From a virus, in the IMG/VR virus record IMGVR_UViG_3300050821_010655, positions 12,697 to 76,696 of that record: 64,000 nt of DNA; one strand, written 5' to 3'. Made by a program: the position numbers and the translations under genes. Of the stretch, positions 12,424 through 55,950 are shown in pieces. How positions within the stretch are numbered: position 1 is the first letter of the stretch; every line of letters begins with the position of its first letter. The notes beneath the pieces were generated by a model. It was given only the letters and a program-made list of their open reading frames with translations. It ran no database searches and was not told where the DNA came from.

Positions 12424-12776
12424 GGCAGACCTCCTTTCGCTGCGGTGATTGAGTTGAGAACGTTTGTTCCTGCCATCAGCACATTTGCCGGGGCAGGACT
12501 CGTGAGGTTGTTTTCAGCCGCCACCACAGCCAGTCCAAAAACCTGCTGAAAGGTATTAAAGTACTGGCTGACTTGCGGAACCGAATTGGTTGCAACCTGA
12601 TGACTAACCACCAACAGCGTGTACGAATAGTCCGCTGCGTTGACGGCATTGCCGATAGCCGCCAAGGATGTGTAAGCCGCCGATTGAGGCGTTGACGATT
12701 TGAAGATCCCGCAACCTGCAAGCAGGAGGCAGGACACTGCCAGTGATGGCAATGTGCATTTAAGTTTTTTTGTCAT
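12420..12776 (-). CDS. lipoprotein (possibly spanin-like)
   Basis: Lipobox LLLAGC. Confidence 0.65.
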   Translation of the reverse strand: MTKKLKCTLPSLAVSCLLLAGCGIFKSSTPQSAAYTSLAAIGNAVNAADYSYTLLVVSHQVATNSVPQVSQYFNTFQQVFGLAVVAAENNLTSPAPANVLMAGTNVLNSITAAKGGLP

Positions 12777-23000: not shown

Positions 23001-26000
23001 CTCCGCCCTGATTCAACGTAGCTGTGATGGTGCGATCCGCATTGGTGATTGCCGAAGCCACTGCGCTCCCAAGGAAATACACCCCAGGCACGAACAGTGC
23101 CGGTGTCTGACCAGACAGGTTTGTGATCGTGCTCGATAAATAATTTGTGGAAATTTGATAGTCCTGTAGCGGTATATTTGTGGTGTGATTCCAATCGCCC
23201 CAGGTGTTCCAGAAATAACCGCCGCTCAGTCCCGGCACCTTGTCCGCGCTCGTCAGATTCTTATTCGCATCGTAGGCCGCTACCGTGCTAGCGCTGGCGA
23301 GTTGGTTGGTGAGTCCATTAGTGGTGACGCCGAAGTTGAAGGAGAGCAGAGAAAACACATCCAGGTTCGTGGCCGTGGTCAACCCGGTCCCGCCCACCAT
23401 CGTCCAAGTGCCGTCATGCCACAGAGCATAAGATCCGTCCGCGTTGGTGAAGTAGATCCCCGAGGCGGTGTCCCACACTATCAGGTTGGTAAACAGTGGA
23501 CCGTAGTAGGTCGGAAACAGCGTAATGACGTGGTTGTTTGTGGTCGCTCCGGTTTGGATGATGCCCTGAATCGCATTGGCCACAATCTGCCCGAGCGCGT
23601 TCGTGACCGTCGTGGACAGGTAGTTCGTTGAAATCTGCCAATCCTGCAAGGGGATATTGGTGAGATGATTCCAATCGCCCCAGGTGTTCCATAGTGCCGC
23701 CCCGCTGCCGTTCGACAGGTTTGTCAATGCCGTCGTTCCGAACTGCGCCTTCCAGAGAGAGGCCAGTGATTGTCCATCCGAGTTCGTTAGCCCAGCAGCG
23801 AGGCCGTTAAACTGTCCCCCGAACAGGGTTGTCACGTTGTTGCTGAATATGGCTTGCCCTCCGTTCGTGAGTGTGCCGGTAATCAAGCCCCAGCCTTGAA
23901 CCCAAAGATTGCTTACAATGGTCAGGTTCGTGACGTTGTAGGTCGTCAATATACCGCCGCACAGGATCGCGGAAGGCGAGTTCGCCGCCGTCACATTGGT
24001 TTCCGTGAGGCAGCCGTTCGCTATCGTCACAACGAGTCCGTCTGTATTCGTCTCGCCCCAGCCGCCCGGATATTCCCAAGACCAGTTCGTGTTCTGAGTG
24101 CTGCCTCGGGCAATGATGGAGTTTGTGAATGGAACTGCCGACCCGCTGGCCGTCGAAGAAATTACACCTCCAGCCGCAGTGATTGTGGTGCCGTCAACTT
24201 TAACCGCTCCGAATGCGCTGGACGTGGCCAGTGGCAATAATCCCGGAGATACGGTTCCGGTGGTGAGCGCGGAGGCGTTGAGGTTTGTCCCCTGTGACAG
24301 GTCAAAACTCCAAGCCCAATTCGTGTTTGAATCCTCGGTCATAAACGCCCCGGCCATCGGGTTATTCGGCCCACCCCAGGTTTTCACCCCGGAGTCCACC
24401 AGCGCATCGTAGTAGCCATGCCCATAGAAAGTGATGGAAGCATTATTGATGGCCGACGCCTGCTGAATGGTGGTGGCCCCACGGTTAGAACCCACCTTGA
24501 TGATTGTCCCAGCTACTTCCACCGCGCAACTTGGGGCGTTCGCAGCAGTGATGCCTTGGCACGTAAGCGACCCGTTCGTGGCGATGATTTCCCCACCCGT
24601 GACGTAGGTGTGACCCAGCTTCGTGTTGATCCCGCGCATGGTCTGTCCTAGAGCGCCAGCGTCGAGGTTCGTATTGTAGGCCGACACCAAGGAGCAATTC
24701 TCAACCCGCAGGATTGAGTTTGTGTTTGCGGAAGCAGAGAACCCGGTGGGCAGGATCGTGATGCAGTCAAATGAACTGAACATTTTGCAGTTGCGGAATG
24801 TCGCGTCAAACGCACCCTGCAATCCCGCCGCTCCCGCCCGGTAAATAATGTCGGAGTAGTTGGTGAAGAACACCCCGTCGAACAAGATGTTTGCTGTAGT
24901 CAGCACCTGCGGACAGTTCAGGTAAACCGGAAACGAGAAACCAGTATTTAATGTCGGCTGACCCCAAATCTCCCCACCCAGCATTGTAAAGTTTCCATCA
25001 ATACTCAGGAGCGTCTGGTGGGTGACATCGCCTACGTAATTTGTGAAGTACAAACGCGCTCCGTAAGCGAGGAAAATGTCATTGGACATTGTGATAAAAC
25101 CATTGGTGTTGATGTAGGTCGAGGCGTCGTAAATCTCACCCGGCGCAAATCGAGTCACCTGCGCCGTTCCGGGCACCCTCAGCGCCACCCACCGTGCCCA
25201 GGTCTTGATTGGGTGCTGGGAATCCGCCCCGTTCCAGGCATCGTTTCCGTTCGTCGCATCGAACCAGAGCGATGGAGATGACGATAGGAAAAAGTTGATA
25301 TTGGTGCCATAGAGATTGGTCAGGCCGGAGCCATCGCCGGTGAAACCTGGATGGCCCGAACCGGCATAATTAACAAAACCTGCATTCCATCCCTGTAGCA
25401 AACTTGGAGACGGACCCAAGACAAGTGTGGGAGTTACGCCAACCGATCCAACACTCAGGCTGATGGCATCTGTAGCAATGCCTGTATTCGTAATCGTAAC
25501 AGGACTGTCCGCTAAGGAGTTTGTCAAACGCGGATAGTTCAAATAAGTGTTTGTCGCACCTCCGTTTGCCATCTGCACAAATTGAGATTGATAAACAGAG
25601 TTGCTTTGGCTGGCTATGTTGGCCGACAAAATGTTGACCACGTTGGTATCGGTCTGGGCGCTGACAATATTGTTGGGCGCACTAAAAATCACCGTTGTAT
25701 TTGAACCCGCAACCAGCGGTACTCCGCCCCCTCCACCAGTGCTATTGATGGTCACTAGGTTTCCATTAGTGACCGCCACCACGTTGGTTCCCGCCGCCAC
25801 GCCCACTCCAGTTGTTCCTACTCGGGCATACCGACTATCCGTCACTGCCGCCGCCCACGCCACGCTGCCTGCCGGGAAGGTCGCCGCGCTGGAAGCCACC
25901 ATAATATCAGCCGCATTCACCACACCGGAAACCGTGTTGGTGACAAAAATCTTGAACTGCTCCTGCGCCCCGCCAAAGGGTGAGGCGCGGACGGTGATCA

Positions 26001-26265
26001 GGTAAAGGTAAGGTTGGGCGTTTGAGAAATAGTAAATGCCGTTGGAGTCGGTCAATCCCTGTACGGTTGCGCCCAGAACTACCGAAGGCGATTGCGCGTT
26101 GGGCACGCTCATAGCCTGCACCCAAATCACGCGATTGGTGTAGTAGGGGGCGGCTTGTAAGCGAGAGTCGGTTAAATTCACTGCCACCGTCGTTGTCGTT
26201 TGGGCGGTCGCCCCAAGACAGACTAACAAGACAAACAGGATTAAAAGTCTAATTAAAGTTTTCAT
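20020..26265 (-). CDS. giant Thr/Asn-rich fibre/adhesin-like protein with signal peptide
   Basis: Signal MKTLIRLLILFVLLVCLGATAQ; GNDAWNG...P.KT followed by a beta-helix region; internal duplications; tail-fibre position. Confidence 0.75.
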   Translation of the reverse strand: MKTLIRLLILFVLLVCLGATAQTTTTVAVNLTDSRLQAAPYYTNRVIWVQAMSVPNAQSPSVVLGATVQGLTDSNGIYYFSNAQPYLYLITVRASPFGGAQEQFKIFVTNTVSGVVNAADIMVASSAATFPAGSVAWAAAVTDSRYARVGTTGVGVAAGTNVVAVTNGNLVTINSTGGGGGVPLVAGSNTTVIFSAPNNIVSAQTDTNVVNILSANIASQSNSVYQSQFVQMANGGATNTYLNYPRLTNSLADSPVTITNTGIATDAISLSVGSVGVTPTLVLGPSPSLLQGWNAGFVNYAGSGHPGFTGDGSGLTNLYGTNINFFLSSSPSLWFDATNGNDAWNGADSQHPIKTWARWVALRVPGTAQVTRFAPGEIYDASTYINTNGFITMSNDIFLAYGARLYFTNYVGDVTHQTLLSIDGNFTMLGGEIWGQPTLNTGFSFPVYLNCPQVLTTANILFDGVFFTNYSDIIYRAGAAGLQGAFDATFRNCKMFSSFDCITILPTGFSASANTNSILRVENCSLVSAYNTNLDAGALGQTMRGINTKLGHTYVTGGEIIATNGSLTCQGITAANAPSCAVEVAGTIIKVGSNRGATTIQQASAINNASITFYGHGYYDALVDSGVKTWGGPNNPMAGAFMTEDSNTNWAWSFDLSQGTNLNASALTTGTVSPGLLPLATSSAFGAVKVDGTTITAAGGVISSTASGSAVPFTNSIIARGSTQNTNWSWEYPGGWGETNTDGLVVTIANGCLTETNVTAANSPSAILCGGILTTYNVTNLTIVSNLWVQGWGLITGTLTNGGQAIFSNNVTTLFGGQFNGLAAGLTNSDGQSLASLWKAQFGTTALTNLSNGSGAALWNTWGDWNHLTNIPLQDWQISTNYLSTTVTNALGQIVANAIQGIIQTGATTNNHVITLFPTYYGPLFTNLIVWDTASGIYFTNADGSYALWHDGTWTMVGGTGLTTATNLDVFSLLSFNFGVTTNGLTNQLASASTVAAYDANKNLTSADKVPGLSGGYFWNTWGDWNHTTNIPLQDYQISTNYLSSTITNLSGQTPALFVPGVYFLGSAVASAITNADRTITATLNQGGVATYAPYAGTVTNYILTNAIQTASSVASAVGYVTNEQYTLAQTWAGPTNLLAVTNELQTYTTTNDMQITNYVGGSAAIPGQVTLWITNGAATNCTLRFPLTGNNLTSILCPASSVTFCTFWLGASTNAWSETQTNIAWASNLAAGAVIGASDGSALWNVRISGANIASNTIPTARLGSGSATSSTFLRGDQTWVTPGGSTYYGPTFTNLIIWDTSTGIYFTNADGSYLLWHDGTLTDFGGNGLSVATNMDVYATAADSVHFTTNAFYLIAQPFNGPTNYLVVTNSLQTYSTTNDMQVTNYYGPINAAYPAQVTLIVTNGAATNCVLRFPITANGVSSIVCPASAVTFSTFWIGASTNAWSETATNIAWANNLLAGASIGASDGSALWNVRISAANLASNTVPTAALPPGLQLLSTNYGAGLSNLTKVYVTFASGGSVASNYNADGSINYALTDFATGFTNGLLIQTNFISSQWYTNFYGAPIIVQANVDLHVSNVSGQSDVNLWIPGAVTNSVGVTSSTLGFAADYTNIIAGMIPAGFAYTFTNNLAGAGDTATLFGGQLMVPGGTNIWGGTLTNAVVSTNVQAFANGDFALEVADGLIVENLTTANTVTVTNGLVNASSGYILASNTLPITASFANLSTASVIFWNSNGYALYLIGTNALTGLGYTNKIWPTAGVADLATTATTATTATTANALAAGGTIGSGVNGVNLTNTPPSGVLASNTFPVTASYANLGNGGMIFWNSNSYGLWLVETNPITGTASTNQIWPPQAANLIGTIPQGALPGGVLTNNDTRAPLFNGGNLTNLNSGALTGGVAVITWKAVAIRPGDTLPMTWTTNTPGTAFNLLQSAGLTFLGWQMSTSGTNNAILEFKMPPNYATGGSITGAVGVASGTNFSTKVTNVWSFAGARAGTALGTAVTFTNNLPITTGTCSTNWHMTAGFTLAGTPNPGDDCYIQVASWGGSPYWTSTNIEWLLNASISIPTTNGMWQTLTYP
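21790..23700 (-). repeat. interleaved internal duplications in the giant protein gene
   Basis: WNTWGDWNH.TNIPLQD.QISTNYLS x2; YYGP.FTNLI.WDT..GIYFTNADGSY.LWHDGT x2; ~130-aa GPTN...ASTNAWSET.TNIAWA...ASNT.PTA x2. Confidence 0.85.
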
Positions 26266-26599
26266 TTTCAATCGTGGGTTCCCACTTCAGCCATTTAGGT
26301 GGATGGTCGGGACACTGTTCGGTCGAGAGCATAATCTTATTCACGAGCCATCCCGAAGTCCGGCACCCGCATAAACTGCATCTTTTGTCCGACGGTCTAA
26401 ACTTGTCGCACTTTTCACAAACAGACCACCGCTCTGCCTGAACTTCTTTGGGGGCTAAAATAGGTCTGTCGCAAACCGCTTGTGCCACCGTTCGCCCAAA
26501 CGCCATCGTCACGCTCGCCGCCTGACGCGCCAAGGACGGCAGTGCCGGTTCAGGTCGAACAGGTCCACGGGACGGGAATGGGTTTATAATATTTGTCAT
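26249..26599 (-). CDS. Cys-rich small protein (DUF6171-like)
   Basis: R..VCEKC......RCSLCGC......K.....E.CP..PPKW. Confidence 0.7.
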   Translation of the reverse strand: MTNIINPFPSRGPVRPEPALPSLARQAASVTMAFGRTVAQAVCDRPILAPKEVQAERWSVCEKCDKFRPSDKRCSLCGCRTSGWLVNKIMLSTEQCPDHPPKWLKWEPTIENENFN

Positions 26600-27426
26600 C
26601 AAATTGTTTGGTAGACGGCTAATACCTCAGCCGGGGTAATGGAATTGATTTGAATGTCAGGGTGAACCACGGTTTTCATACCGGCAGGTACCCATTGCGG
26701 GTAAAGTTCGTTCCACAACGCCAAAGTAGGAATGCCCAAGGCATGTGCTAAATGTGAAATACCCGTCTCACTACCAATCAAGGCTCGACAGGCTTGCAGG
26801 GCGCTGGCAACCACGCTCAGGCTGGCGTTGCTCAACACCTTGGCGCTTCCGACAGGGAGTGCTTTGTAGAGGCGCGAGGCGGATAAGAAATCAACTCGCC
26901 CCTCGATCAACAACAACTTCACGCTTTTAACCAGTTCCTTGCACACCTCCAGCCACCTTTCAACAAACCAGTTCTTGCCAAGTTCACCCGTGGCATGGAT
27001 CGCCACATAACCGTTATACTCGGGGTTGGGCGTCACCCTGAAACTTGGGGTGTAATTCACGGTAGGCACGCTCAAGGAACTCAGGTGTTGCAACCGCTGG
27101 AGTCCGGGTGGAACGGCGCTGGCTAGATCAAGGACGCTGTTGACGGTGCTTGCCGCGCCATTCACGTTGGAAGTCTGGAAACCGCAGTTGATCCCAAGAT
27201 CGTAGCCTGAAGAATCGGAGTAGATGATGGGCGATTCGCTGGTTCTCATCCGTCCATTCCACGCGCAGTCGCTCACCAGATTTGCGTCTTTCAAGAACTG
27301 GCTGTATTCAAAATCAACGTAACTGTGAATCACTGCCGTTGGGTAGAGCACGCGCAGGGCTTGGAGCATGGGCGATGCGATGATCAGGTCGCCCAAGGTC
27401 TGGTTTTGGCAAAAGGCGATTTTCAT
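26599..27426 (-). CDS. glycosyltransferase family 9 (heptosyltransferase-like)
   Basis: LGDLII.SP.L.ALR..YP.A.I; IGSETGISHLAHALGIPTLALW. Confidence 0.85.
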   Translation of the reverse strand: MKIAFCQNQTLGDLIIASPMLQALRVLYPTAVIHSYVDFEYSQFLKDANLVSDCAWNGRMRTSESPIIYSDSSGYDLGINCGFQTSNVNGAASTVNSVLDLASAVPPGLQRLQHLSSLSVPTVNYTPSFRVTPNPEYNGYVAIHATGELGKNWFVERWLEVCKELVKSVKLLLIEGRVDFLSASRLYKALPVGSAKVLSNASLSVVASALQACRALIGSETGISHLAHALGIPTLALWNELYPQWVPAGMKTVVHPDIQINSITPAEVLAVYQTI

Positions 27427-30400
27427 GGGCAGTTCACCTTAATTCCTTGCGCCAAATAATCTGCCTCAAATCGACCATGAGCGCATTCGCACAAGTACGA
27501 TCGGATATATCGGCCCCAGACCGTATCAAATGCCAACGGGATAGCAGAATTAAAGGTATCTGGCGAAGCGTATCCTGGTCCAAAAGGTGGAATTAAAACG
27601 TTCCCGTTCACCGGACTCAACGTGTCCAACGCTGCCAACGAAAGATAACCGATATAAATTCCAGTCGGCAATACCGGTGCGCCTGCCGGAACTGCCAGAA
27701 TATTCTCAGCGTAAGGTTCACGAAAATAGTAACGCGTACCCCCGCCAGAGGTATCATCCGGGCAGGTATCGGTCAGGCAGCTTCCGTCATCTTCCCCCCA
27801 GGTGCAAACCGTTGGACCTTCCCCGCTGGTCGAATATGTGACGCACGGGATGTGGGGCTTCATCCAGAATGGGTCTTGGATATGTTGAATGATTGCCGAC
27901 TGTTGCATCGCCCCAAACCTGCCATCCAAGGTCAGAGTCGCCGGGACCGCCACAAAGGCGTTGGGCCACTGCTCACCGCTGGGATTGGTGATCGCGTCGT
28001 AACCGTTGCTGGTGATCGCCATGACTTGGGGATTGCACGGATCAAACGCAAGACACTCCTGAGTGGCGGTAAAGGTTGAAACCGCCTGCGGCATTCCGTG
28101 GGTGACTTGCTTGGCGCGAATCAGAGTCGAAGATGCAGGCGCGGCGTCAGCGCATGATCCGGTGGCGGCGTACTGGTCCACCACTCGCTGGCGCTCCTGA
28201 TAATCCCTAAGATTAAAAAGCCAAACAACGTAAGCAAACTGCCCCTTGCTTTGATCGTCATCCCACCAGTAATCCGGTGCGCCGTTGACCGCGACAAAAC
28301 CCGGACCTGAGAAAGTCCCAGTGGGCGAGTGGTTGATTACGAAATGGCTGCTATCAATGGTCGAATCAACTGTGAACGTGGCGTTGACATCGATGCCGGA
28401 AACCCCACTGATCACCACCGAATCGCCCTTGGCTAACTGGGTGGCGTTGCCGGTAGTGATTTCGGTTTTGGTCACCCCGCCAATCACCGTGCTGTAGGCG
28501 TTGATGACCGACACTCGCCCGCAAATCCCCGGCGCAGACGGAAATCTGAGTTTGCCCATGATGCCGTTTCCGCCAAAACTATTGCAGTCCAGAGGATAGA
28601 CATAACCCGGCGCAAAGTCTTTCAGAACCAAGGTGTAGTTGGTGCTGGAGTTTTTGGTTGCCTGATAAAGCCCGGTCGGCACCACGGATGAGCCACAGAC
28701 CCAAACCAAATCCGCCGTGTTGATGGCGGTCGCGCTGTTAATATCGACACTGGCGATCCCGCTGCTGCTGGCTTGAATACAACGCACGGTCGTCTCATCC
28801 AAGTCGTACCGATCCGCCCCGCAAGGACGATCAAAGTTGACTGATGGACGCGGCACTTTTATTTCCGCCCACTCCTGACCGATTAACACGCCGTTCCAAA
28901 AGTATTTCCACTGCCCATAAGGCAAACTCCCCGGCGCTCCGATACAGGGAATCGGGATAGCCAGTCCGCTATAGCCCGTTCCAGGTCCAAACGGATAACC
29001 GTCAGCACAAGGAGGCGTCCCGCAACTCACACCGGTAAAGGCATTGTAGTTCTCAGTCCATTCGGTGGCGGTCTTGGGGATTCCCGCATCGGTCGGGTCG
29101 GTGGCGTTGGTCTCGCCCGCAAACGCCCCGTAGGCGTAGCGGTAAGAACCCACCGTGCTGGAATCTCCACAGCACGCCCGCCATGTCACATGGTTAAAAT
29201 CAAAGTAACCTCTGTCCAGACCGTCAAAAGGAACCGGCGCACCCTTTATACTCCCATCATAAAGCAATGAGTTGCCGTCCACCCAAGGAACGGTGTTGGT
29301 GGGGTAATCCGCCCAGCATTCGCCAATCGCAGGAGCCACACCACCCATCGGCTCGCTGTAGTGGACGATTGGGGCGACATTGCAATGCTCGTCCGCCCGC
29401 CACGGATATTGCAGGTCGTCTGAGAGATTCCACTTCTTTCTCAACGTTATCCAATCTGCATTTACGTCAGCCGAAGTATAGGGGACGGTTAGACTGCCGG
29501 TAACAGTGATGGTTACAGTTGAACTTCCAAAACTGCCCATGCCAATCCCGTTGGCTCCATGCGTGTAGGCAGTGTCACTGCTGTAAGTGATGTACTCGTG
29601 CCACTGAAGGACACCACCGCCGTCGTATCGGTTGTAACTAAAGTTTCCGGTGGAAGTATCCACTGTGGCGATCTTATAAATGTTTCCCGTGCCCGCATAA
29701 TAGGATGTAAAAGTCAGGGATGATCCTGATTTAACAATCGTGATGTCATAGGCGCAAGGCACGTTGACGCACGCCACTTCCAGCACAATCCGGTAAAAAA
29801 GTGACAACGATTGATTCTTGTTGACCAGCATTCCGGCAGGAGGCGGACAATAGGTGTCGCCGCAGGTCACACTGGGGCAACTCACATCGCTGAATCCATT
29901 AAATAGCAAGTCATGCGCTTCCTGCGTCCAAATGTCCGCACCTGAACCGCCGCCGCTGCATGCGCGGGTCATTACTCCGCTATAACGGTCGATTGAAGCC
30001 GAACGTGAGACACTGCCGCTGCCGGGATTGCTCCCACCCGCAGCAACAAAAGAACAGGTAACGGTTTCAGTTAGATAATGGTTGGTGTCGGGCGTTGTCT
30101 GCTCAAACTCAATATCCAACCCATTGCACTCAGATGGCAGTGATCCACCACCGGCACAAGTGGCCGATCCAAACCCAACCTGCTTGCCAAGGTCGGTTAA
30201 CCCCGATGGGTCGTGACTGCGGTAAGAAAATTTTCCGTGCCACGACTTCCACACCTGAATATTTTTGAAGCCGATCTTCCGGCACAGCGACATATCCACG
30301 TTTTTGCCGGATGAAATAAAACAGTTAAACCCCACCGTCTTGTGCGTGGTGTCCACCGAATGGCAGGCAATCCAATCTGATGGGTTGTCCGCCAAATTGC

Positions 30401-31043
30401 CCGTAACCCATGTATCGCACTTGGGTTCGCCCCCGCGATTTCCACAACCCGAGGCGCAGGGACCGGGGCAGTTGCCGGTTGTGCTGGCAGGCCAAATGGT
30501 GTCGCACCGATTGGGACCGCCGCAGGTGCCGCCTCCGCCTGAGTCTGACAGTCTTGGATAGGGCAATATTCCAGTCGAACTCCAAAGCCGGTTGCTGAAC
30601 ACCAGTCCAAGTTGACATCCAGTGCCCAATCCGCCTGAGACTGAGTTGGGGGTTGTGGGGTCAACCGTATAAAGACCCGCATTAGCCAGCGTCACGGTCT
30701 TAACCCCGCCTGTTCCGTCAATCGTTGCCACCGTGGCTTGGGCTGACGTGCCGGTGCCGCCCACTACGGTCAGGGCGTCACTAACATGATAACCTGATCC
30801 TTTGGCAAAGACCGAGAAAGATGAGACTACGTTGGTCGGCTGTGAACAGGCTTGATCGGCGTTGCAACTCTCGGGGATTGTACCGCCCGGAGGACACATC
30901 CAGTCATTAACCTTTGTGGACTGAATCCAACCCGGAACCGCCTTCTCGGAGGCTCTTTGATGGCGATAACACGCGCCGGATGTGGGCGTTCTCCACCCCA
31001 AACAAGGACTCCTCCAAGGGGGACCAACCCCACCAGAACTCAT
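27423..31043 (-). CDS. large Cys-rich tail/structural protein
   Basis: 1206 aa; GSGY.V.D.LTV.GG...A..TV..ID..GGV..V.L...G.Y motif typical of tail proteins; tail-module position. Confidence 0.65.
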   Translation of the reverse strand: MSSGGVGPPWRSPCLGWRTPTSGACYRHQRASEKAVPGWIQSTKVNDWMCPPGGTIPESCNADQACSQPTNVVSSFSVFAKGSGYHVSDALTVVGGTGTSAQATVATIDGTGGVKTVTLANAGLYTVDPTTPNSVSGGLGTGCQLGLVFSNRLWSSTGILPYPRLSDSGGGGTCGGPNRCDTIWPASTTGNCPGPCASGCGNRGGEPKCDTWVTGNLADNPSDWIACHSVDTTHKTVGFNCFISSGKNVDMSLCRKIGFKNIQVWKSWHGKFSYRSHDPSGLTDLGKQVGFGSATCAGGGSLPSECNGLDIEFEQTTPDTNHYLTETVTCSFVAAGGSNPGSGSVSRSASIDRYSGVMTRACSGGGSGADIWTQEAHDLLFNGFSDVSCPSVTCGDTYCPPPAGMLVNKNQSLSLFYRIVLEVACVNVPCAYDITIVKSGSSLTFTSYYAGTGNIYKIATVDTSTGNFSYNRYDGGGVLQWHEYITYSSDTAYTHGANGIGMGSFGSSTVTITVTGSLTVPYTSADVNADWITLRKKWNLSDDLQYPWRADEHCNVAPIVHYSEPMGGVAPAIGECWADYPTNTVPWVDGNSLLYDGSIKGAPVPFDGLDRGYFDFNHVTWRACCGDSSTVGSYRYAYGAFAGETNATDPTDAGIPKTATEWTENYNAFTGVSCGTPPCADGYPFGPGTGYSGLAIPIPCIGAPGSLPYGQWKYFWNGVLIGQEWAEIKVPRPSVNFDRPCGADRYDLDETTVRCIQASSSGIASVDINSATAINTADLVWVCGSSVVPTGLYQATKNSSTNYTLVLKDFAPGYVYPLDCNSFGGNGIMGKLRFPSAPGICGRVSVINAYSTVIGGVTKTEITTGNATQLAKGDSVVISGVSGIDVNATFTVDSTIDSSHFVINHSPTGTFSGPGFVAVNGAPDYWWDDDQSKGQFAYVVWLFNLRDYQERQRVVDQYAATGSCADAAPASSTLIRAKQVTHGMPQAVSTFTATQECLAFDPCNPQVMAITSNGYDAITNPSGEQWPNAFVAVPATLTLDGRFGAMQQSAIIQHIQDPFWMKPHIPCVTYSTSGEGPTVCTWGEDDGSCLTDTCPDDTSGGGTRYYFREPYAENILAVPAGAPVLPTGIYIGYLSLAALDTLSPVNGNVLIPPFGPGYASPDTFNSAIPLAFDTVWGRYIRSYLCECAHGRFEADYLAQGIKVNCP

Positions 31044-44773: not shown

Positions 44774-45730
44774 TCATTGTGCGGTCCCTTCCTTGGCCTT
44801 GGCTGGAAACCCATAATCCGCATCATGGAACGTCGCGAATCCACTCGACTTCGGATGGCCCCCACCCCCAAACTCCGTCGCAATCTTAGAACAATCAAAG
44901 TTATCGCGGCTCCTTAAGCTCCACTGCCTGCGCCCGTCGTTCAGATCGCGGTAACTGGCAACAAAAGGTGAGTCTGGATTAGCGTTTAAAAGTGAATGAC
45001 AAATCTCAGAAGTCAGGTCGGTGGCATTAACCACTGGAACGCGATAAACACCCTCGCCTTGAGTAACAGCATCAGGATCAAATGTAATTCGGCAAGTGCC
45101 GTTCACAATGAACGACGCCATCCTGGAGTTTTCCAGCGCGTCTTTCACCTGCTGGTCGGCAAACCGACGGCAGATTGTTCCTTCCCCCATCAAATCTTCT
45201 AAACATTGTGCTTCGGCCTCCAAGTCCCGAGGAATCGACACACAACTAATTCTTTCCCACGTCTCAAAATCCATCTGATAACTTTCAATCGCTAAATGAA
45301 TCTCCCGACTCATCGGCAAACCCCATGTCCACAAGTCAGCATCGCATATGTACCCAAAAAAGGCAGGCACATCTTGATCAGGGTGAAAATATTCCCAAGA
45401 CAAGACTGCCGCGCTCTTGCTGGTATCAAAGTGACAGTAAGACAAATCTCCCAATTCCAACTGCGCCGATTTATGGTGGTCGATCAAGCACAACCTTGGG
45501 TAGTCCGACGCATCGCCCAGCCGATTCAACAAATCCGCAAATAGAGACTGCATGACCTCTCGTGGGTAGGAAAAGTCTAAAATAAACACATGCTCTGCCT
45601 CGGGCATGGGCGGCAAAGGTGCTCCACGATTAACTGAAATATATTCAGCATTGCTGCCAAGTTTCAGGAAAGCCGCAAAGGCAGATCCAAAACCATCCGA
45701 ATCATTGTCATAGAGGACGTAGCTTTTCAA
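44774..45730 (-). CDS. DHH/DHHA1 phosphoesterase
   Basis: DSDGFGSA, ILDFS, IDHHKSA, DLW.W, SLRS, GGGGHP.SSGF. Confidence 0.9.
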   Translation of the reverse strand: MKSYVLYDNDSDGFGSAFAAFLKLGSNAEYISVNRGAPLPPMPEAEHVFILDFSYPREVMQSLFADLLNRLGDASDYPRLCLIDHHKSAQLELGDLSYCHFDTSKSAAVLSWEYFHPDQDVPAFFGYICDADLWTWGLPMSREIHLAIESYQMDFETWERISCVSIPRDLEAEAQCLEDLMGEGTICRRFADQQVKDALENSRMASFIVNGTCRITFDPDAVTQGEGVYRVPVVNATDLTSEICHSLLNANPDSPFVASYRDLNDGRRQWSLRSRDNFDCSKIATEFGGGGHPKSSGFATFHDADYGFPAKAKEGTAQ

Positions 45731-47628: not shown

Positions 47629-47994
47629 ATGTTCTTACTTTTAAATCAAAATCAATGCCCTCAATGCGGCAAAATCGGATCGATTCGCTGGGATCAACAC
47701 AGGTGCGCCGAATGCAACGCCAAGCTATTCCACCCATCCGATGATTTCGTCAGGTTAAAGCAGGATTGGGTGTTGTCTTTTTGGGTTTATTTCCATCCTA
47801 ACTCCTCTGGATTTTTCAGGGGATGGGCACACTCAGGACAATTAAACGATCCAAAACCACACGAAGAATTCCCCAAGAACGAAAAACCTCCCGAGAGCTA
47901 CGGCAGGACCGGCATGCGAACCAAGCTGGACCACTCGGCCAGGCACACACCATCGGAGTTGGGCGCAGAGAAGTTCAAGACAGTTCAACCTTAG
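47629..47994 (+). CDS. Zn-ribbon hypothetical protein
   Basis: CPQC...CAEC; preceded by TTGTCA-N18-AATACT-N6-ATG. Confidence 0.55.
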   Translation: MFLLLNQNQCPQCGKIGSIRWDQHRCAECNAKLFHPSDDFVRLKQDWVLSFWVYFHPNSSGFFRGWAHSGQLNDPKPHEEFPKNEKPPESYGRTGMRTKLDHSARHTPSELGAEKFKTVQP

Positions 47995-48535
47995 TTTTAA
48001 AAATCTTGTAACTCGCCAGCCGGTCACCCTCAAAAATCTCGACCGAAAATCCATAATGGGCACAAAAGTGATCGACCGCCTGCACCACTCCGGGATACTG
48101 CTGGTCGTAATCGTGCCCGCAAATAAACCCACCATCTTTGACCGCCACTAAAGCCGCCGCCAATTCTCCAATCGTCTGTTCAAATTGATGAGTTGTGTCG
48201 ATGTAAACCCAACTCAAACTCCCTGCCTCTCTCATGGTCAACCACGCGACACTCTCTGCCTGCACCACCTCCACTACATACTCAAAAGCAAACCGCCTCT
48301 CCACCTCCTCCTTCATCGCTACCATGTCATACCTGCTCATGTGCTCGCCATTTTCATCACCTGACATCACGCTCCCTCTAAATAAATCCACCAGATAAAG
48401 TTTTTCAGGATTGCACCGCTTTAGAATCTCAGCCGAGAAATCACCCGCCAAGACACCCGCCTCACAACACGTTCCACCCTTTGGAAGTGAATCAAGCAAC
48501 TGTAGTCGGTTCTGTTGGGTTTTTGTGATGGTCAT
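47975..48535 (-). CDS. class I SAM methyltransferase (Methyltransf_24-like)
   Basis: EAGV..GDFS, LVD, WVYIDTTH.FE, VKDGGFICGHDY...PGV.QAV. Confidence 0.85.
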   Translation of the reverse strand: MTITKTQQNRLQLLDSLPKGGTCCEAGVLAGDFSAEILKRCNPEKLYLVDLFRGSVMSGDENGEHMSRYDMVAMKEEVERRFAFEYVVEVVQAESVAWLTMREAGSLSWVYIDTTHQFEQTIGELAAALVAVKDGGFICGHDYDQQYPGVVQAVDHFCAHYGFSVEIFEGDRLASYKIFKTKVELS

Positions 48536-49157
48536 ATAATCCAAATCGTTCCTGCACCTCGCGCACACCAATGGCATTGCCTATCGAGCACGCATGGTAA
48601 TTCACGATATTTAAATCTTTTGCCTGTTGGGGCGTCATCGTACCGCCGTGAGCAAGATAGTTAAATCGCCTTGGCAATCGGCAGACCTCCACGCCGGTTT
48701 CCAACAGCGCAAGATTCAACGCCCCCTGCTCCAGCCACCGCCCGCACTTTGGATGGCACTTCCACACGGCGTCCCACACTGGTTTGTGTTCGCGACCAAA
48801 TATAGTCAGTCCGCCATTCACGTAAAAGTCAGGAAATGGGATTTCAAGATTGACGCATTCATGAAGAACATTATTTGAGCGATCATCGGGAACCGCCATG
48901 AATGGGCGATGCAGTTCTTCAAACAACGCCTCGGGTTGCCACGGTTGGAGGCAGATAATGTCGCTGTCGAAAACCAGAAATGAGTCAATCTCGGGGAAGT
49001 GATCGATCAACTTTGCTTTGATCCATGAGGGGTGGGGCACTTCGCAAAACACTTCATCTATAATGATGCAATCCAACCCCGTCATTTCCCCCATACGGTC
49101 GGCGGCGGCTTTGCCTATCCACTTATACTCACCCGTTGAAATACAGATACCAGTCAT
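48492..49157 (-). CDS. GT-A glycosyltransferase (GT8-like)
   Basis: W.K.......FDSDI, AVPD, YVNGG, EQGALN, LPRRFN. Confidence 0.75.
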   Translation of the reverse strand: MTGICISTGEYKWIGKAAADRMGEMTGLDCIIIDEVFCEVPHPSWIKAKLIDHFPEIDSFLVFDSDIICLQPWQPEALFEELHRPFMAVPDDRSNNVLHECVNLEIPFPDFYVNGGLTIFGREHKPVWDAVWKCHPKCGRWLEQGALNLALLETGVEVCRLPRRFNYLAHGGTMTPQQAKDLNIVNYHACSIGNAIGVREVQERFGLYDHHKNPTEPTTVA

Positions 49158-49432
49158 GGTAGGTAGTCGAGCTTGTCCGCCTCGGATGTGATGGTCGCAG
49201 TAACGAAATAACTCAACCCCGATAACGCCATTTCATCTGGTCCATGATCGGGTGGATCATCCCGAACGGCATACTTTGTGGCCTCTCGACGAATCACATC
49301 TGACGCGATGCCCTGCGCTGTCATCAAACCATCTTTTCGGGCGTCGTTTTGAAGGTCAATAACGTCCTTGATTGTTATTTTATCATCAAAGGTAAATCCC
49401 TTTTCTTTAAACCATTCGATTGCGTTTTTCAT
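49154..49432 (-). CDS. hypothetical protein
   Basis: Packed ORF. Confidence 0.45.
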   Translation of the reverse strand: MKNAIEWFKEKGFTFDDKITIKDVIDLQNDARKDGLMTAQGIASDVIRREATKYAVRDDPPDHGPDEMALSGLSYFVTATITSEADKLDYLP

Positions 49433-49436
49433 ACCT

Positions 49437-49697
49437 TCAAACAATTTTAAACCAGACATCGATTTGACCGCACTTGGGGCAGGGCTGGCCTTCAAACTTA
49501 ACTTTATCAAACAATACGCCAGCACCCATTTTCTTGATATGCTCCGGTCGGGCGAGCATTTTCCAACGGTAGTTGCAGTTCAAACAAGCCGCCTGTCCAA
49601 GAATCCAACCCTCATCCTTCATATACTTCAAGACCGACTCTTGGGTATGGCACCCTCCAAACCTTTCTGGCCTTTTGGTCGGGCGATTCACATTCAT
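49437..49697 (-). CDS. Zn-ribbon protein
   Basis: CLNC...CPKCG; TTGACG-N18-GACATT promoter just upstream. Confidence 0.55.
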   Translation of the reverse strand: MNVNRPTKRPERFGGCHTQESVLKYMKDEGWILGQAACLNCNYRWKMLARPEHIKKMGAGVLFDKVKFEGQPCPKCGQIDVWFKIV

Positions 49698-49731
49698 GCT
49701 TACCAAATGTCTCTCAGTTGTGTTTGTGGCG

Positions 49732-50304
49732 TCAACGTAAAACCAAGAGCGTATCGTCGTGGTTGAACTTTTTCAGATCATACCATTTAGAGACATGCTC
49801 CATACTTTCCTTCATCGACTGCGCCAGAGTGTCTTTATAATGGGCGTGCCACTCGACCGAGATTTGGTGGGCGACAGGTCCAGGCCAGTTCTTAAGCACC
49901 GAATATTCAGCCCCCTCTATGTCCAGTTTCACCGCGTCAAATATCTGGACGACATGATTCTCCATCAGCCATTCAATCGTGGTACACCACACCTGCCTTG
50001 AGTTTTCGCTGTCGGGGTCGTGTTCAGCTATGTGGTTGGTAGAGGGGTTGGGTTCGGTGACAAACCGCTGCAACCCACGGGTGCCATAGAGAGCCATGCG
50101 GTAGAACTTTATTTTGGGGTTGGGCGGGTCGCAGATGTCCCGCGACGGGTCAAGCGCAATGACGTTGCAACCGACCGCCGCTATGCGATTGGAAAAGCAG
50201 AACCCCCGGCACCCGGCGTCCAGCACCCAGCCGCCTTCGGTAATCAGGTTGATTTCGATGGAGTGGAAGTGTCCATCGTCGTTGCTGGGAAGTTTCAAAA
50301 TCAT
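49732..50304 (-). CDS. FkbM-family methyltransferase
   Basis: VLDAG, VIALDP, AVKLDIEGAEY.VL, QISVEWH. Confidence 0.8.
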   Translation of the reverse strand: MILKLPSNDDGHFHSIEINLITEGGWVLDAGCRGFCFSNRIAAVGCNVIALDPSRDICDPPNPKIKFYRMALYGTRGLQRFVTEPNPSTNHIAEHDPDSENSRQVWCTTIEWLMENHVVQIFDAVKLDIEGAEYSVLKNWPGPVAHQISVEWHAHYKDTLAQSMKESMEHVSKWYDLKKFNHDDTLLVLR

Positions 50305-51799
50305 CCCGATCCTATTGCCTTGTATCTGCCTGTGGACGGTCCAAAGCCCAATGACTGGTAGCCCCGCACGCCGACCGGCAGGGCGAACCGCCAGTCGCCA
50401 AAGGATTCCTGAAGGCACTCAATACATCCAGAACCACAATCGATCTGGTCATTCTTCTCATCACCACCTTTTGCAATTTCTGCCTCATCTAAAAAAGTTG
50501 AGTTCCATCGCCCCTGAACCAGCAATACATTCCCATGTTCTGCCGCCGCCGAAAATGGCTTCCACCGTAAAAGTTTTTTCCGGCGCGAAGGCAATTCCTT
50601 GAAATCTCTCCCCGGCAAAATATTGCGGGCGTAGTGATCAATCACTATCTTACCCGAGGCACCCGGTTCCTGCTCCATTCTGATGGCTGTCCCTTGGGGA
50701 TCAATCTTTGCTGTTTGGGCGATTCGCTCTTCCACCACCTTGGGAGTCCCACGCAACCTCTGCACATCCAAAATAATCCACTGACCATTTTTGAAAGACA
50801 TGAGCATGCCGCACGTCCAGTCAGGGTTTCCGCCATCTGAATCATCGGTCGCCGCCAAATCCCAATACCTCACAAACTGAGTCAGGTCGGCAGGCGCTTC
50901 TGGAATGATTTTAAACCACTCACGCCGGAATAGTGTTCCTACCGCTTCTGAGATTTTCCAATTTCCACCCAGATACCGCTCGCGATCCACGTACGGCAAA
51001 GCCATTAGGTTGGAAAGATAACCTGGGTCTTGCTGCATCAGGATTTTATTGTCATACACCTTGGCGGGGATAAACGTCACCGACTTGGGGACCACGCCGG
51101 GATGTTTGTTCATTAAGGTGTAGGGGTCGTCCGCCCACTCCATGCGATCTTTCACCCGACAGAACCACCTTAACTTTCCAGCCCGATCCTTAATCGGGTA
51201 TCCTGTATCCTGATCAATCCACCATTCAATGAACCTCGCCACCCATGATTTTGAGTCAGGATTGGTCGTGCATCTGATATAGGGGCGAACTCCGCAGGTC
51301 GAACGATTAGACCCAAGCATGAAGAAAAACATATCTTCCATGAATGAGGCAAGCTCATCAAAACAAATCAATGGTACTCCCGCCCCAAGCCATGCAAATC
51401 GGTCGTCAGGATTCTCCATGTGGCGGAACATCACCGTCGCCCCAAAACTTCCCGGTCGATTTGGATTTGGAAACCGCCAGTTCATAGTGTTCTGACTTCC
51501 AGCCGCGCCGATCAATGGGTAAAGCTTTTGAGATGTGATCCATGGTCCTTCGGGTTGTAGAATTTGGGGGAAGGTGCGGCGAAAAATGACCGCCGTGAAA
51601 TTTGGGTTAGAAATATGACGCAACGGCTCCATCACTAAAGCATAAGTTTTTCCTCCTCCCCTGGAACCTCCGTATATCGCTATGTCCGCCTGCGTGGACG
51701 GCGCTACAGGAAGTCAGATTGCGGTCCAGGTTGAGCCTGAAACATAGACTGACTTCCTTGTGATACACCTCCCTTCGGCTTCGCAGTTGCGACATTCAT
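50301..51799 (-). CDS. terL: terminase large subunit, interrupted near the N-terminus (51799-51704 and 51698-50301)
   Basis: Frame 1 MNVATAK...FQAQPGPQSDFL*; frame 2 STQADIAIYGGSRGGGKTYAL...CFDEL...TTNP...RYWDLAA...EQEPGASGK...NDQID. Confidence 0.9.
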
Positions 51800-51807
51800 T
51801 TATATCC

Positions 51808-51837
51808 ACCCTGCCCCACTGCCTCGCCTCGCGTCAA
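51808..51837 (-). promoter_or_regulatory. promoter TTGACG-N18-CAGGGT for terL
   Basis: 8 nt upstream of ATG 51799; same 18-bp spacing as the other promoters. Confidence 0.5.
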
Positions 51838-51844
51838 GGTAAAC

Positions 51845-52036
51845 TCACTTGCTGGGCTTTACGTGCTTGGGCAATCCGATGTATGGGGTGCGGGCGAAAT
51901 GCTCAAGAGTTTGGCTGGGCATTTTCGCCATCGACTTGGCTGCGGGTCCGAGTTTGCTGGCGGGGATCTCTCCCTTTTGAACAGCCCTAGCAATACCCGA
52001 TGCTTGCTGCTGACTTGTGCTGACACTCGGAGGCAT
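51845..52036 (-). CDS. DUF3008-like small protein
   Basis: S.SQQQA.G.A.A..KGE.....L...AKSM..M....LE.FA.T...GLP.H. Confidence 0.7.
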   Translation of the reverse strand: MPPSVSTSQQQASGIARAVQKGEIPASKLGPAAKSMAKMPSQTLEHFARTPYIGLPKHVKPSK

Positions 52037-52038
52037 TT

Positions 52039-52218
52039 TTAACCTTTCCCTTTTACGTTTTGAGTTTCACTAAACGGACAATAGCACGATCCCCAGTGAA
52101 TTCCACCACAATGCGGACACTCCTTACCCTGCTCGCATTTGATGGGTTTTGGATGATGGTTCGCCCCACAATACTGGCAAGGCTCATCTGGATTGGGTTG
52201 AATCATCTTCTGTTTCAT
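52039..52218 (-). CDS. 59-aa Zn-knuckle protein
   Basis: Manual translation MKQKMIQPNPDEPCQYCGANHH...CPHCGGIHWGSCYCP; ATGA overlap. Confidence 0.5.
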   Translation of the reverse strand: MKQKMIQPNPDEPCQYCGANHHPKPIKCEQGKECPHCGGIHWGSCYCPFSETQNVKGKG

Positions 52219-52454
52219 AACCGCACATTCCTCCCCTGTTCCAGATCATAATCCACCCGCCACACGTCGCCGTCGTCCACCAGAACAAAATGACGTATAC
52301 CTTCTGGGGTTTTTACAAACAACCTACCTGTGCTTTTTGCCCTGAATCTCAACCGTTGTTTTCCAAATGGGGCGTCGAAGATGGGTTTGATTTCTTTGGG
52401 GATTCCAAAAATCACTCTCTTGCCGGTCCAAACAGTTTTGATAGTAGTGCTCAC
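52215..52454 (-). CDS. hypothetical protein
   Basis: Packed ORF. Confidence 0.5.
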   Translation of the reverse strand: MSTTIKTVWTGKRVIFGIPKEIKPIFDAPFGKQRLRFRAKSTGRLFVKTPEGIRHFVLVDDGDVWRVDYDLEQGRNVRL

Positions 52455-53242
52455 AATCCAAGTTGAGTTTTAACCACCGTCACCGCCAGTTCGGCAATCC
52501 GGTCGGTGTCTGGAAATTCCGGCAGGGTCGATTTATCCTGCGCCTCTTTTGCCGCCACAAACAGGCGGTCGCTCTCCTGCTTCACTTCTGCCAACGTCCA
52601 TTCACCCCGCTTGATTTCCAACAACTCTTTGGCATCCGGTCGCACCACCGTCATTTCCCCGGTATTTAAAAACTCCACACACATCCGCAGCAGGCGTATC
52701 AGGTGCGCTCCGTTTTTGGTGTCATACCCAAATTTACCAATCAACTTCTTGCGCTTCTCGCCCATGTAGCCCATGCACGCGCCGTGCTCCATCCGATGGA
52801 GTTGCCCGTTGGCGTATCCCGCAAACGACTTGAACACATGCTTGCCGACAAAAATCGACCGAGCGTCCAGTAGCAACCTACCAGCGTATGTGATTTTCAA
52901 AAACATGCTTTTGTCCAACCAGAGTATGGAGAGCACGTTGGGGTTTCCCATTTGCAGCAGGTGAATAAACTTTCTCGCTTCGTAAATCACCACGTCCCAC
53001 TCGTCCTCTTTAATCTCTTTGGTGCCGCGAGAGCCGTACTCTTTCAGTCCAAGATAATATTGCTCGGGTGGAACACAGACACCCATCAGGTCTTTATCAT
53101 CAATACTGTTTGGGTCGGTGTTTGGCACATACATGCCGTGGCTGATACTGCCTCTGTAAACCATTAGGATCGACCACTCATGCGCCCCACTATCTCCAAG
53201 GTTGGGTATTTCCGAAATCTCAGGATTAATAAATGTGCTCAA
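52451..53242 (-). CDS. Pol-beta superfamily nucleotidyltransferase (YcgL/RlaP-like)
   Basis: RGSISHG......DDKDLMGV, KF..LL..GNPNVL..L, GYDTK..AHLIRLL.M, LL.IKRGE. Confidence 0.8.
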   Translation of the reverse strand: MSTFINPEISEIPNLGDSGAHEWSILMVYRGSISHGMYVPNTDPNSIDDKDLMGVCVPPEQYYLGLKEYGSRGTKEIKEDEWDVVIYEARKFIHLLQMGNPNVLSILWLDKSMFLKITYAGRLLLDARSIFVGKHVFKSFAGYANGQLHRMEHGACMGYMGEKRKKLIGKFGYDTKNGAHLIRLLRMCVEFLNTGEMTVVRPDAKELLEIKRGEWTLAEVKQESDRLFVAAKEAQDKSTLPEFPDTDRIAELAVTVVKTQLGL

Positions 53243-53745
53243 ACCACCCTCCTTTCCGCCGCCGCACCGGCCAGCCGGTCGCACCGCTCGTTGTGCTGGT
53301 CGCCCGCGTGCCCTCTAAGCCATGTGAACTTGCAGTGGCGTTTGTCCTTCAACGCTACCAGTTCTTGCCACAGGTCGGCGTTCTTGACGTTCTTCCACTT
53401 GCGTTTTGCCCATGCCGAGGTCCAGCAGTTTGCGCCGTTGACCACATAGCGGGAGTCGCTGAGGATTTCGATGTGGGTGTTTTCGGGGACCGCTTGCAAG
53501 GCTCGGATGACGGCGATGAGTTCGGCGCGGTTCGAGGTCGTCTCAGGCAGGTGGTCGCTAATCAGACAACTGGGGTTGACCGCCTTGCCGTCGCAAAAGA
53601 GCAAGAAAGACCAACCACCCGGACCACCAGGATTTTTCAAGCATGAACCATCCGTATAAGCTACCCACTGCTTGCCGTTGATTTTTGTGGGGTGAGGTTT
53701 TTCCAGTACAAACCCGAATTCAGATTGCGGGGCGATGTGTTTCAT
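53239..53745 (-). CDS. rnhA: ribonuclease HI
   Basis: YTDGSC..NPGGPGGW, TT.NRAEL.A.I.AL, SDSRYV, VKNADLW, W.RGHAG..NE.CD.LA. Confidence 0.95.
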   Translation of the reverse strand: MKHIAPQSEFGFVLEKPHPTKINGKQWVAYTDGSCLKNPGGPGGWSFLLFCDGKAVNPSCLISDHLPETTSNRAELIAVIRALQAVPENTHIEILSDSRYVVNGANCWTSAWAKRKWKNVKNADLWQELVALKDKRHCKFTWLRGHAGDQHNERCDRLAGAAAERRVV

Positions 53746-55143: not shown

Positions 55144-55950
55144 TTATTCTACAGCGCACCCGCAACCACCCCACTCAAATTCATCAAACTCTTTCTGCTG
55201 ATCAAGTCGCTCCCTGAAGTCTTTCATGGTTAGGGTTTTTGTGGTGCCTCCTTTTCGGTCTTTCATTATTGATACATCGCTGCCAATAAATTTCCTAAAT
55301 TCCTGCTCCTTTTCTTCGTGATACAAATACCTGTCTCGGTTAGTCCGAAGCAACAGGGCAAACTGTGCCTGACCACCTTTAACACAAAACCCACCACAGT
55401 TAGCATGTGGATAACCCGCCGAATACAATCTTGGCGGACAAATCCCTTCATCGTGGAGTTTTTGAATAATTTGCAATTTATTCAGGTATGGGGGGGCACA
55501 CATTAAGGACTCCACCTTGAATGGTGCCCTCATCGCACGCAAAGACTCAAGCCTGTGAGATTCGTCCCAATTAATTCCAAAATGAAGTGTGGTGGTTTCT
55601 GGATCGCAGTTTTCTTCCTGCCACTTGTCGAGTATTTCCCTCTTCAATTCCACACTACAAATCGGCACTCTTGAGTTTCCCATCATGCCCTTTTTGAAGA
55701 AATGCTGCCACACTGAGACGCCTTTTGTGATTTTTACTAGTGGCGCTCCGACATTCTTAGCCGCCTGATCCAAAAACCTATAATTATCCAAATCCTCACC
55801 GTCATTGGGGTTCGTGCTGTGACCTTTTACATCGGCAAACAAAAGACACATTCCATCTATTCCATACTTCGCCGCCGTACGCTTCGCCTCTAACCACGAG
55901 CATGCCCCGCTTGAAAACATACAGAGATGTTTTATTATTTTAGGAATCAC
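55144..55950 (-). CDS. PAPS-reductase-like (PP-loop/AANH fold) protein
   Basis: FSSGACS, E..DNYRFL, CS.ELK, GI.WDE.HR, Y..GY.HANCGGFCVKGG, C-terminal GCGC. Confidence 0.75.
   Translation of the reverse strand: MIPKIIKHLCMFSSGACSWLEAKRTAAKYGIDGMCLLFADVKGHSTNPNDGEDLDNYRFLDQAAKNVGAPLVKITKGVSVWQHFFKKGMMGNSRVPICSVELKREILDKWQEENCDPETTTLHFGINWDESHRLESLRAMRAPFKVESLMCAPPYLNKLQIIQKLHDEGICPPRLYSAGYPHANCGGFCVKGGQAQFALLLRTNRDRYLYHEEKEQEFRKFIGSDVSIMKDRKGGTTKTLTMKDFRERLDQQKEFDEFEWGGCGCAVE

Follow-up and report, generated by a model that had tools for sequence, protein, structure and literature searches.

How does a phage make the large subunit of its terminase when the gene is closed by a stop codon just ahead of the Walker A region? 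The question is raised by terL, the sole terminase large-subunit gene across the 76.7-kb IMG/VR viral contig IMGVR_UViG_3300050821_010655, a linear contig of an uncultured phage; among public sequencing runs, a single DNA run from a soil metagenome was found to contain the stretch, and no RNA run. We analysed 64 kb of this contig (64,000 nt, positions 12,697 to 76,696; hereafter the window), whose genes lie on the minus strand and in which terL is divided by an 8-nt insert opening with TAG. The original prediction took the insert for a candidate site of ribosomal bypass. Given that stop-led inserts of 5, 6 or 9 bases are present at the same spot in many distant relatives, the most likely answer is that ribosomes hop the gap.

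The gap in terL and its seamless removal

Read on the minus strand, terL runs through ...QAQPGPQSDFL and then meets TAG; the gap in RNA letters is UAGCGCCG. The gene is composed of the following parts.

51707..51799, minus strand: 5' coding segment (ORF1), read from ATG 51799 or, more likely, ATG 51745, and ending ...QAQPGPQSDFL
51707..51709, minus strand: putative take-off codon CUG (Leu), the final homologue-aligned codon ahead of the stop
51699..51706, minus strand: 8-nt coding gap TAGCGCCG, with the UAG stop at 51706-51704 and the putative landing codon CCG at 51701-51699
50301..51698, minus strand: main segment, resuming at UCC 51698 (STQADIAIYGG...) and running to the stop at 50301, with Terminase_6N and Terminase_6C
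51645..51668, minus strand: Walker A P-loop GSRGGGKT, identified in the translation and aligned to GAAGGGK[ST] of homologues

The open reading frame from ATG 51799 terminates ...MFQAQPGPQSDFL at TAG 51706-51704. As had been predicted, deletion of TAGCGCCG restores the frame and yields the usual terminase N-terminus, QPGPQSDFL-STQADIAIYGGSRGGGKT (STQADIAIYGG..., into Walker A). The product aligns without gaps to RPQPGPQTQFLSSAADIAIYGGSAGGGKT of the contiguous terminase of Rhizobium phage RHph_N28_2 and to more than 80 other contiguous TerLs; across the junction, DFL-STQADIAIYGG matches QFLSSAADIAIYGG and similar homologue sequences, again without a gap. ORF1 contains the family motif P-Q-x-G-P-Q-x-x-F, which is invariant among 15 contiguous homologues. 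This invariance suggests that the motif is a part of the ATPase fold; judging from terminases in general, PQxGPQxxF may be the adenine-binding "Q-motif" region of the ATPase. A sequence search of the PDB with the N-terminal motif, using a contiguous homologue and a 15-sequence profile, gave no match.

The frame of Walker A is open from 51713 only (LPVAPSTQADIAIYGGSRGGGKT...) and comprises 470 codons up to the stop at 50301. The prediction that it has no canonical start ahead of Walker A held, since its earliest ATG, GTG or TTG is GTG 51635, already past the motif. The downstream frame retains Walker A, the Walker B-like LICFDE and the nuclease motifs. It matches two Pfam domains, Terminase_6N with 1.3e-24 and Terminase_6C with 9.1e-11 (87.5 and 42.4 bits against curated cut-offs of 22 and 22.6). 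By tblastn, the main segment is 48.7% identical to annotated terminase large subunits of Methanoculleus viruses; it is about 47% identical to Rhizobium phage terminases.

The same 8 nt are found in a separate Logan assembly contig of 81.7 kb with a k-mer depth of 23.7 and 0 differences over 51300-52100, a comparison of contigs and not of raw reads, in a run that is probably the source sample itself. Since a second assembler recovers the insert, an assembler artefact, which the original prediction wished to see excluded, is unlikely. We take the dominant genotype to carry the insert, though not yet as an independently replicated finding.

The gap could conceivably be dealt with before translation or by the genetic code itself. 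That the 8 nt are removed or read differently at the RNA level (micro-intron, editing), or that TAG serves as a sense codon, appears very improbable to us. RNA-level removal finds some encouragement in RlaP, an RNA-repair-type nucleotidyltransferase encoded about 750 nt upstream; however, 5-9 nt are far under the size of any known intron or bulge-helix-bulge substrate, and the Rfam search remained without match. Reading TAG as sense would leave the frame wrong after the 8 nt; in addition, TAG, the rarest stop in this phage, does close 7 of 66 open reading frames, and 81% of the window is coding under the standard code. No tRNA or suppressor tRNA gene was found in a tRNA search.

Stop-led inserts in related terminase genes

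We inspected the 5' ends of about 160 related loci (denoted by L numbers). In at least 25 contigs, all with a TerL of this family, the gene is interrupted at exactly the codon junction of the window, between F-[L/M/I] and [A/S][T/S]xA..IYGG, and the interruption is always stop-led. The following junctions were found in relatives, written in RNA letters from the pre-stop codon onwards.

CUU UAG CUU: 6 nt, in frame; L062/L101, L085, L089/L097 and L103, 4 or more lineages
CUU UAG CUG: 6 nt; L091
CUU UAG CUC: 6 nt; L124
CUU UAA CUA: 6 nt; L190
CUG UAG CUU: 6 nt; L204, a metagenome-assembled genome (MAG) of a soil Pyrinomonadaceae
CUU UAG GUG CUG: 9 nt; L140/L142/L146
AUU UAG AAA AUC: 9 nt; L092
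AUG UAG UG: 5 nt; about 20 contigs and four Clostridia MAGs

In every case the codon before the point of resumption is similar to the pre-stop codon. The two share their first two bases in 10 of the 12 junction types, the exceptions being AUG/GUG and CUG/CCG of the window. We regard such matched codons as a signature of peptidyl-tRNA re-pairing, and not of readthrough, reinitiation or frameshifting. The bypass originally proposed for the window, a +8 hop with take-off at CUG and an imperfect landing at CCG, is thereby supported by inserts of 5, 6 and 9 nt at the same junction.

All 19 matches to PQxGPQxxF-x-TAG in IMG/VR were true terL genes, while the control scan with TAA or TGA gave one true terL among seven matches, the remaining six being chance matches. 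The TAG scan of a genome collection recovered true terL in 5 of 13 matches, and a looser pattern gained six chance matches only. A TerL tree of 104 unique sequences requires 12 gains or losses of the insert state, with at least 8 of these changes forced by well-supported branches; insert-bearing genes neighbour contiguous sisters (e.g. L052 and L061).

In the AUG UAG UG lineage, represented by seven distinct sequences, substitutions could be counted on both sides of the gap. The upstream 16 codons have 77 synonymous and 28 non-synonymous changes in their own frame (20 and 86 if read in the Walker frame), and the downstream codons have 248 synonymous and 34 non-synonymous changes in the Walker frame. 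The synonymous excess on either side indicates that both pieces are translated and constrained. The TAGTG insert itself is invariant across the lineage. Read with the standard code, loci with in-frame inserts contain long open reading frames (up to 1243 codons), so a general reassignment of TAG does not explain them.

The same collection of inserts bears on the alternative raised in the original prediction, a -1 frameshift. A -1 (or +2) shift in UUC CUG UAG would give DF-PVAP-STQ, DFL-VAP-STQ or DFL-AP-STQ, that is, a TerL with two or three extra residues. The Walker frame is indeed -1 relative to ORF1 and open 5 codons ahead of the resume point, and shifting is known to be stimulated when a stop occupies the A site. 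However, the overlap is just C UUC CUG UAG and contains no slippery heptamer of the X XXY YYZ type, the P-site tRNA would re-pair with at most one of three bases (CUG to CCU), and downstream structure is not strong, with weak 4-bp options only. The extra residues would fall in a stretch that is conserved and gap-free in the family. Finally, the 6- and 9-nt inserts of relatives are in frame, so that a shift could not account for them, and frameshifting is excluded as a shared mechanism. We therefore consider a shift improbable for the window.

Some relatives are interrupted elsewhere. A second stop-led site lies inside the Walker A region after ..IYGG (L065/L066/L158/L159, L157 and L171), where GGC UAG GA, GGU UAG GA and GGC UAG GC, each a 5-nt insert, were observed; these loci have a small stem-loop with UAG in the loop, and a 5' hairpin was tested for and is absent. 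Inteins (ending ..THNS/THNT) occupy the Walker A P-loop in terL of L014, L038, L043, L069, L070 and L092, the last of which apparently combines the 9-nt stop-led gap with an insertion just after GGGK. For the gap of the window, an intron, intein or homing-endonuclease cassette was considered and rejected, as the insert has only 8 nt, no Rfam match and no endonuclease neighbour. No endonuclease family was found in the open reading frames flanking terL in the window, L028, L052, L062, L065, L089, L093 and L103. Protection by a homing endonuclease, as with T4 gene 60 and MobA, is neither supported nor excluded.

The upstream hairpin and the start of terL

Two further elements precede the gap of the window.

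51700..51769, minus strand: hairpin with a 10-bp stem (51758-51749 with 51717-51708) and an extension (51769-51765 with 51704-51700)
51743..51759, minus strand: candidate ribosome-binding site, with Shine-Dalgarno AAGGAAG at 51759-51753, a 7-nt spacer and ATG 51745-51743, as read from the sequence

The stem is formed by AGGAAGTCAG (51758-51749) and CTGACTTCCT (51717-51708), the loop contains a small inner hairpin, and the extension of GGTGT with GCGCC recruits 5 nt of the insert. The predicted hairpin, including its extension across the insert, was recovered as the minimum-energy fold of the region (-50.4 kcal/mol for 141 nt, z = -2.68). Its stability exceeds that of 96-99.5% of synonymous recodings, and the hairpin region reaches -35.3 kcal/mol in the window against a mean of -19.2 in 88 contiguous homologues.

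All 16 unique sequences with an insert at the junction described above have such a hairpin, which ends at the take-off codon. In each of them the take-off arm pairs with upstream sequence that lies at the ribosome-binding site or the start codon, or close by. On average, 10.1 of the 12 nt located 5' of the junction are paired upstream in the 16 insert-bearing sequences and 5.8 in the 88 contiguous ones (Mann-Whitney p = 1.5e-7, uncorrected for phylogeny); the mean pairing probability of this 12-nt arm is 0.82 and 0.45, respectively. The arms vary by lineage: AAGAAAUGCC / GGCAUUUCUU in one, AACUGUUCUU / AAGAGCAGUU plus CACUA / UAGUG in a second and GUCGUUCUU / AGGAGCGAU in a third, compared with AGGAAGUCAG / CUGACUUCCU in the window. 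Where the arms could be aligned, 84.7% of cells pair, against 35-62% with the partner slid, and two compensatory pairs were detected. The hairpin is thus a recurrent companion of the gap and no local oddity, in agreement with the earlier argument that it speaks against a random error. The alignment of relatives' 5' regions, suggested as a check at the outset, accordingly provided inserts at the same site and compensatory stem pairs; a counterpart of the 8-nt form itself was not among them.

The Shine-Dalgarno of ATG 51745 sits within the 5' arm of this hairpin, so a role at initiation comes into consideration: the structure could limit initiation by masking the Shine-Dalgarno and start region. 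The original prediction opened the frame at ATG 51799. A frame beginning there does exist; as the true start, ATG 51745 (MFQAQPGPQSDFL) is more likely, having the better Shine-Dalgarno. It leaves 13 codons before the stop, where relatives have 13-17 between start and junction, and the resulting short N-terminus is typical of many of them. ATG 51799 is possible too, with long N-terminal extensions seen in the nearest clade. The promoter that had been placed ahead of ATG 51799 was not recovered, as a sigma-70 scan found no sigma-70-like site upstream of this codon. The question of bypass is independent of which start is used.

The proximity of start region and gap brings in another possibility, namely that the gene is split, with a 13- or 31-residue peptide ending at UAG and the rest of TerL produced by termination-reinitiation or by a hairpin-bridged non-canonical initiation. 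The hairpins do place the Shine-Dalgarno and start region beside the resume site, and in the AUG UAG UG lineage GUG stands in the "landing" position, with GUGGCAAC a copy of the start context AUGGCAAC. However, such a scheme fits this lineage only. The window has no AUG, GUG or UUG before Walker A, and CCG, CUU, CUC, AUC and GGA are not initiation codons. Nor does reinitiation predict that the pre-resume codon copies the pre-stop codon, and the N-terminal motif that would be lost to the peptide is invariant in contiguous TerLs. We judge a split gene to be a rather remote explanation.

The L028 lineage (e.g. L028:2940-3005) has a peculiarity of its own. Its 5-nt TAGTG is the exact reverse complement of the start-codon CACTA, and the resume site has GUGGCAAC, a repeat of AUGGCAAC from the start. 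These repeats hint at a templated (quasi-palindrome) origin of the insert or at GUG reinitiation in this lineage.

A proposed hop and its relation to known systems

The sequences themselves establish the gap with its stop, its seamless removal, the hairpin and the recurrence of matched codons across the family; from them we infer a hop together with its length, its efficiency and the involvement of the hairpin. In the scheme that we propose, the ribosome would initiate at AUG 51745 (or 51799) and arrive with CUG-Leu (51709-51707) in the P site and UAG in the A site. Slow termination at UAG, the rarest stop and one read only by RF1, would let the peptidyl-tRNA-Leu unpair. The mRNA would then slide by 8 nt, and the tRNA would re-pair imperfectly at CCG (51701-51699). 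Decoding would restart at UCC to give ...QSDFL-STQADIAIYGGSRGGGKT... and a full-length TerL in which the PQxGPQxxF motif is joined to the ATPase. Ribosomes that terminate would release a peptide of 13 or 31 residues, and the hop could thereby also keep TerL output low. The hairpin, which spans the region from the Shine-Dalgarno and start to the take-off codon, would be a part of the device. It may re-form behind the ribosome and so favour forward movement; for T4 gene 60, pairing of the exiting mRNA was proposed to drive forward bypassing (10.1101/2024.12.09.627546).

Four triplets could in principle serve for landing in the correct frame: CCU at -1, GUA at +2, GCG at +5 and CCG at +8. Among them CCG is the closest to CUG (two of three bases), and it is the sole one that gives a seamless junction. 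A two-of-three match is expected by chance with a probability of about 0.16, so by itself it is weak evidence.

We assign a probability of roughly 0.6 to the reading of the window gap as a short translational bypass of +8 with take-off at CUG and an imperfect landing at CCG. The family-level pattern is a stronger finding than the case of the window, which is the most unusual member of the family, with 8 nt, out of frame, and an imperfect landing codon. Several observations weigh against the reading. The mismatch of CUG and CCG is at the middle base, and every other case matches better. The 8-nt form is a singleton: protein-pattern scans of IMG/VR viral and metagenome contigs found no TerL more than 50% identical to that of the window, so conservation of this particular gap cannot be followed in its kin, and no member of the nearest clade carries an insert. 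The TerL branch of the window is long (0.92 against a median of 0.15), and the second assembly speaks at the level of contigs, probably from the same sample. Moreover, the 3' arm of the hairpin is within the ribosome at take-off; the helix is then not folded, and its role is conjectural. As regards the mismatch, P-site re-pairing is reported to have considerable latitude, with larger deviations in yeast mitochondria (10.1101/2022.08.31.505936).

Several of these observations would suit the view that the 8 nt are a recent inactivating insertion, with terL and the phage variant defective and the likeness to the hop sites of relatives coincidental. The singleton gap without a conserved counterpart, the imperfect landing codon, the long branch and the origin from a metagenomic contig with a CheckV completeness of just 64% all count in its favour. 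However, a chance insertion must then have struck the junction used by at least 8 other lineages, opened with an in-frame TAG, been seamless on removal and paired into a pre-existing hairpin. The downstream frame of 464 codons keeps Walker A, LICFDE and the nuclease motifs, the contig is abundant, and the remaining phage genes are intact, among them primase/helicase, helicase, RNase H, portal, head protease and major head protein. We consider inactivation unlikely, though worth keeping in mind.

Beyond the window, we tentatively raise a broader view, for which we have limited confidence: short stop-hops may be a natural and recurrent route to expression of phage terL, with a hairpin from the Shine-Dalgarno to the take-off codon as an integral element, and the window may represent its extreme, an out-of-frame +8 hop to a non-cognate codon (CUG to CCG). 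If this is true, mRNA structure and the distance travelled, instead of codon-anticodon matching, could fix the landing site.

The surroundings of terL show several other features. In relatives terL and the portal gene are adjacent; in the window they are separated by about 2.4 kb of extra genes (47975-50418, minus strand), which encode an FkbM-type methyltransferase, a DNA-methyltransferase-like protein and three open reading frames without family match. The first of these three shares 118 nt with the C-terminal tail of terL, which is not conserved. Near the packaging module lie accessory genes (minus strand; 52451-53284, 53239-53745, 55144-55950 and 44774-45730) for the RlaP-type RNA-repair nucleotidyltransferase, RNase H, a PAPS-reductase-like protein and a DHH phosphoesterase, the gene of the last coming straight after the portal gene. 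The structural region includes two very long open reading frames of 2083 and 1206 codons (20020-26271 and 27423-31043, minus strand).

Genes of this kind are easily mis-annotated. Gene callers truncate or split them, and terL of the window would be called from GTG 51635, minus its Walker A motif; such calls affect phage annotation, completeness estimates and terL-based phylogenies. Locus L003 (MW202897.1) illustrates how 5' ends of terL get mis-called in this family: the deposited coding sequence (locus 1588-2820) begins past Walker A, and the homologous open frame extends from about 1429. Its real start is probably GTG, as there is no ATG upstream.

Natural translational bypassing is rare, the cases being T4 gene 60 and its homologues, yeast mitochondrial byps and the phiHau3 terminase. 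So far, hopping over short stop-led gaps is known chiefly from synthetic constructs, along with a few phage genes, and our limited literature search found no paper describing UAG-led hops in the present terminase family. The series of 5-, 6-, 8- and 9-nt gaps, each with its own hairpin and all in an essential phage gene, would offer ready-made variants for the study of take-off, hop length and landing. For the phage, the gap may lower or regulate the amount of terminase.

Among known recoding sites, prfB has a +1 programmed frameshift at the "shifty stop" CUU UGA C, with a Shine-Dalgarno 3 nt upstream. There, too, a Leu codon stands ahead of a stop that is read poorly, and the arrangement alters the reading of the message and sets the output of the product. 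However, the prfB shift is of one overlapping base, whereas the window needs +8 (or -1) and its relatives include in-frame gaps.

T4 gene 60, in which 50 nt are bypassed and UAG immediately follows the take-off codon (Huang et al. 1988; Manning and Atkins, 10.1101/2022.08.31.505936), shares with the window the UAG after take-off, the logic of matched take-off and landing codons, the contribution of mRNA structure and the location in a gene for an essential phage enzyme. The gap of the window is much shorter, 8 nt against 50. In T4 the UAG is in a take-off stem-loop 3' of the codon, while in the window a 5' hairpin ends at the take-off codon. Gene 60 also has the MobA homing-endonuclease cassette, in contrast to terL with no endonuclease neighbour found, and unlike gene 60 the window has no known nascent-peptide signal.

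Synthetic stop-hops of +5 and +6, such as CUU UAG CUA, were obtained in E. coli (Weiss, Dunn, Atkins and Gesteland 1987, as covered in PMC5009743). In them the peptidyl-tRNA leaves the pre-stop codon and pairs anew with a matched codon a few nucleotides downstream, and CUU UAG CUU, CUU UAA CUA and AUG UAG UG of the relatives have the same arrangement. According to the 2016 recoding review, short in-frame stop-hops, long predicted, had no known natural case (PMC5009743). The synthetic hops are engineered and of low efficiency, whereas the natural cases described here carry a conserved 5' hairpin; the proposed hop of the window differs from them in being +8 with a mid-codon mismatch.

Of published systems, the terminase of the Streptomyces phage phiHau3 comes closest to the window: its gene is interrupted by two 10-nt gaps headed by UUA, of which 7-nt versions exist in prophage StrepC.1 and in a prophage of S. 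catenulae (Smith et al. 2013; PMC10732093). For one of the junctions, mass spectrometry in E. coli supported bypass and not frameshifting, on a construct that carried the stop UAA in place of the leading UUA (PMC10732093). In both systems a short, frame-disrupting, non-coding block is present in a phage large-terminase gene, its flanks align seamlessly to uninterrupted homologues, and a slow-to-decode codon heads the gap; a 5' stem-loop was proposed as a stimulator in phiHau3 as well. The two differ in terminase family and in the positions of the gaps, that of the window being 13 codons from the start and before Walker A. The trigger differs too: phiHau3 has a rare sense codon, UUA, with ties to the life cycle of Streptomyces, and the window has the stop UAG. 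Finally, unlike those of phiHau3, the gaps of the present family recur in many uncultured phages, from gut Clostridia to soil Acidobacteria.

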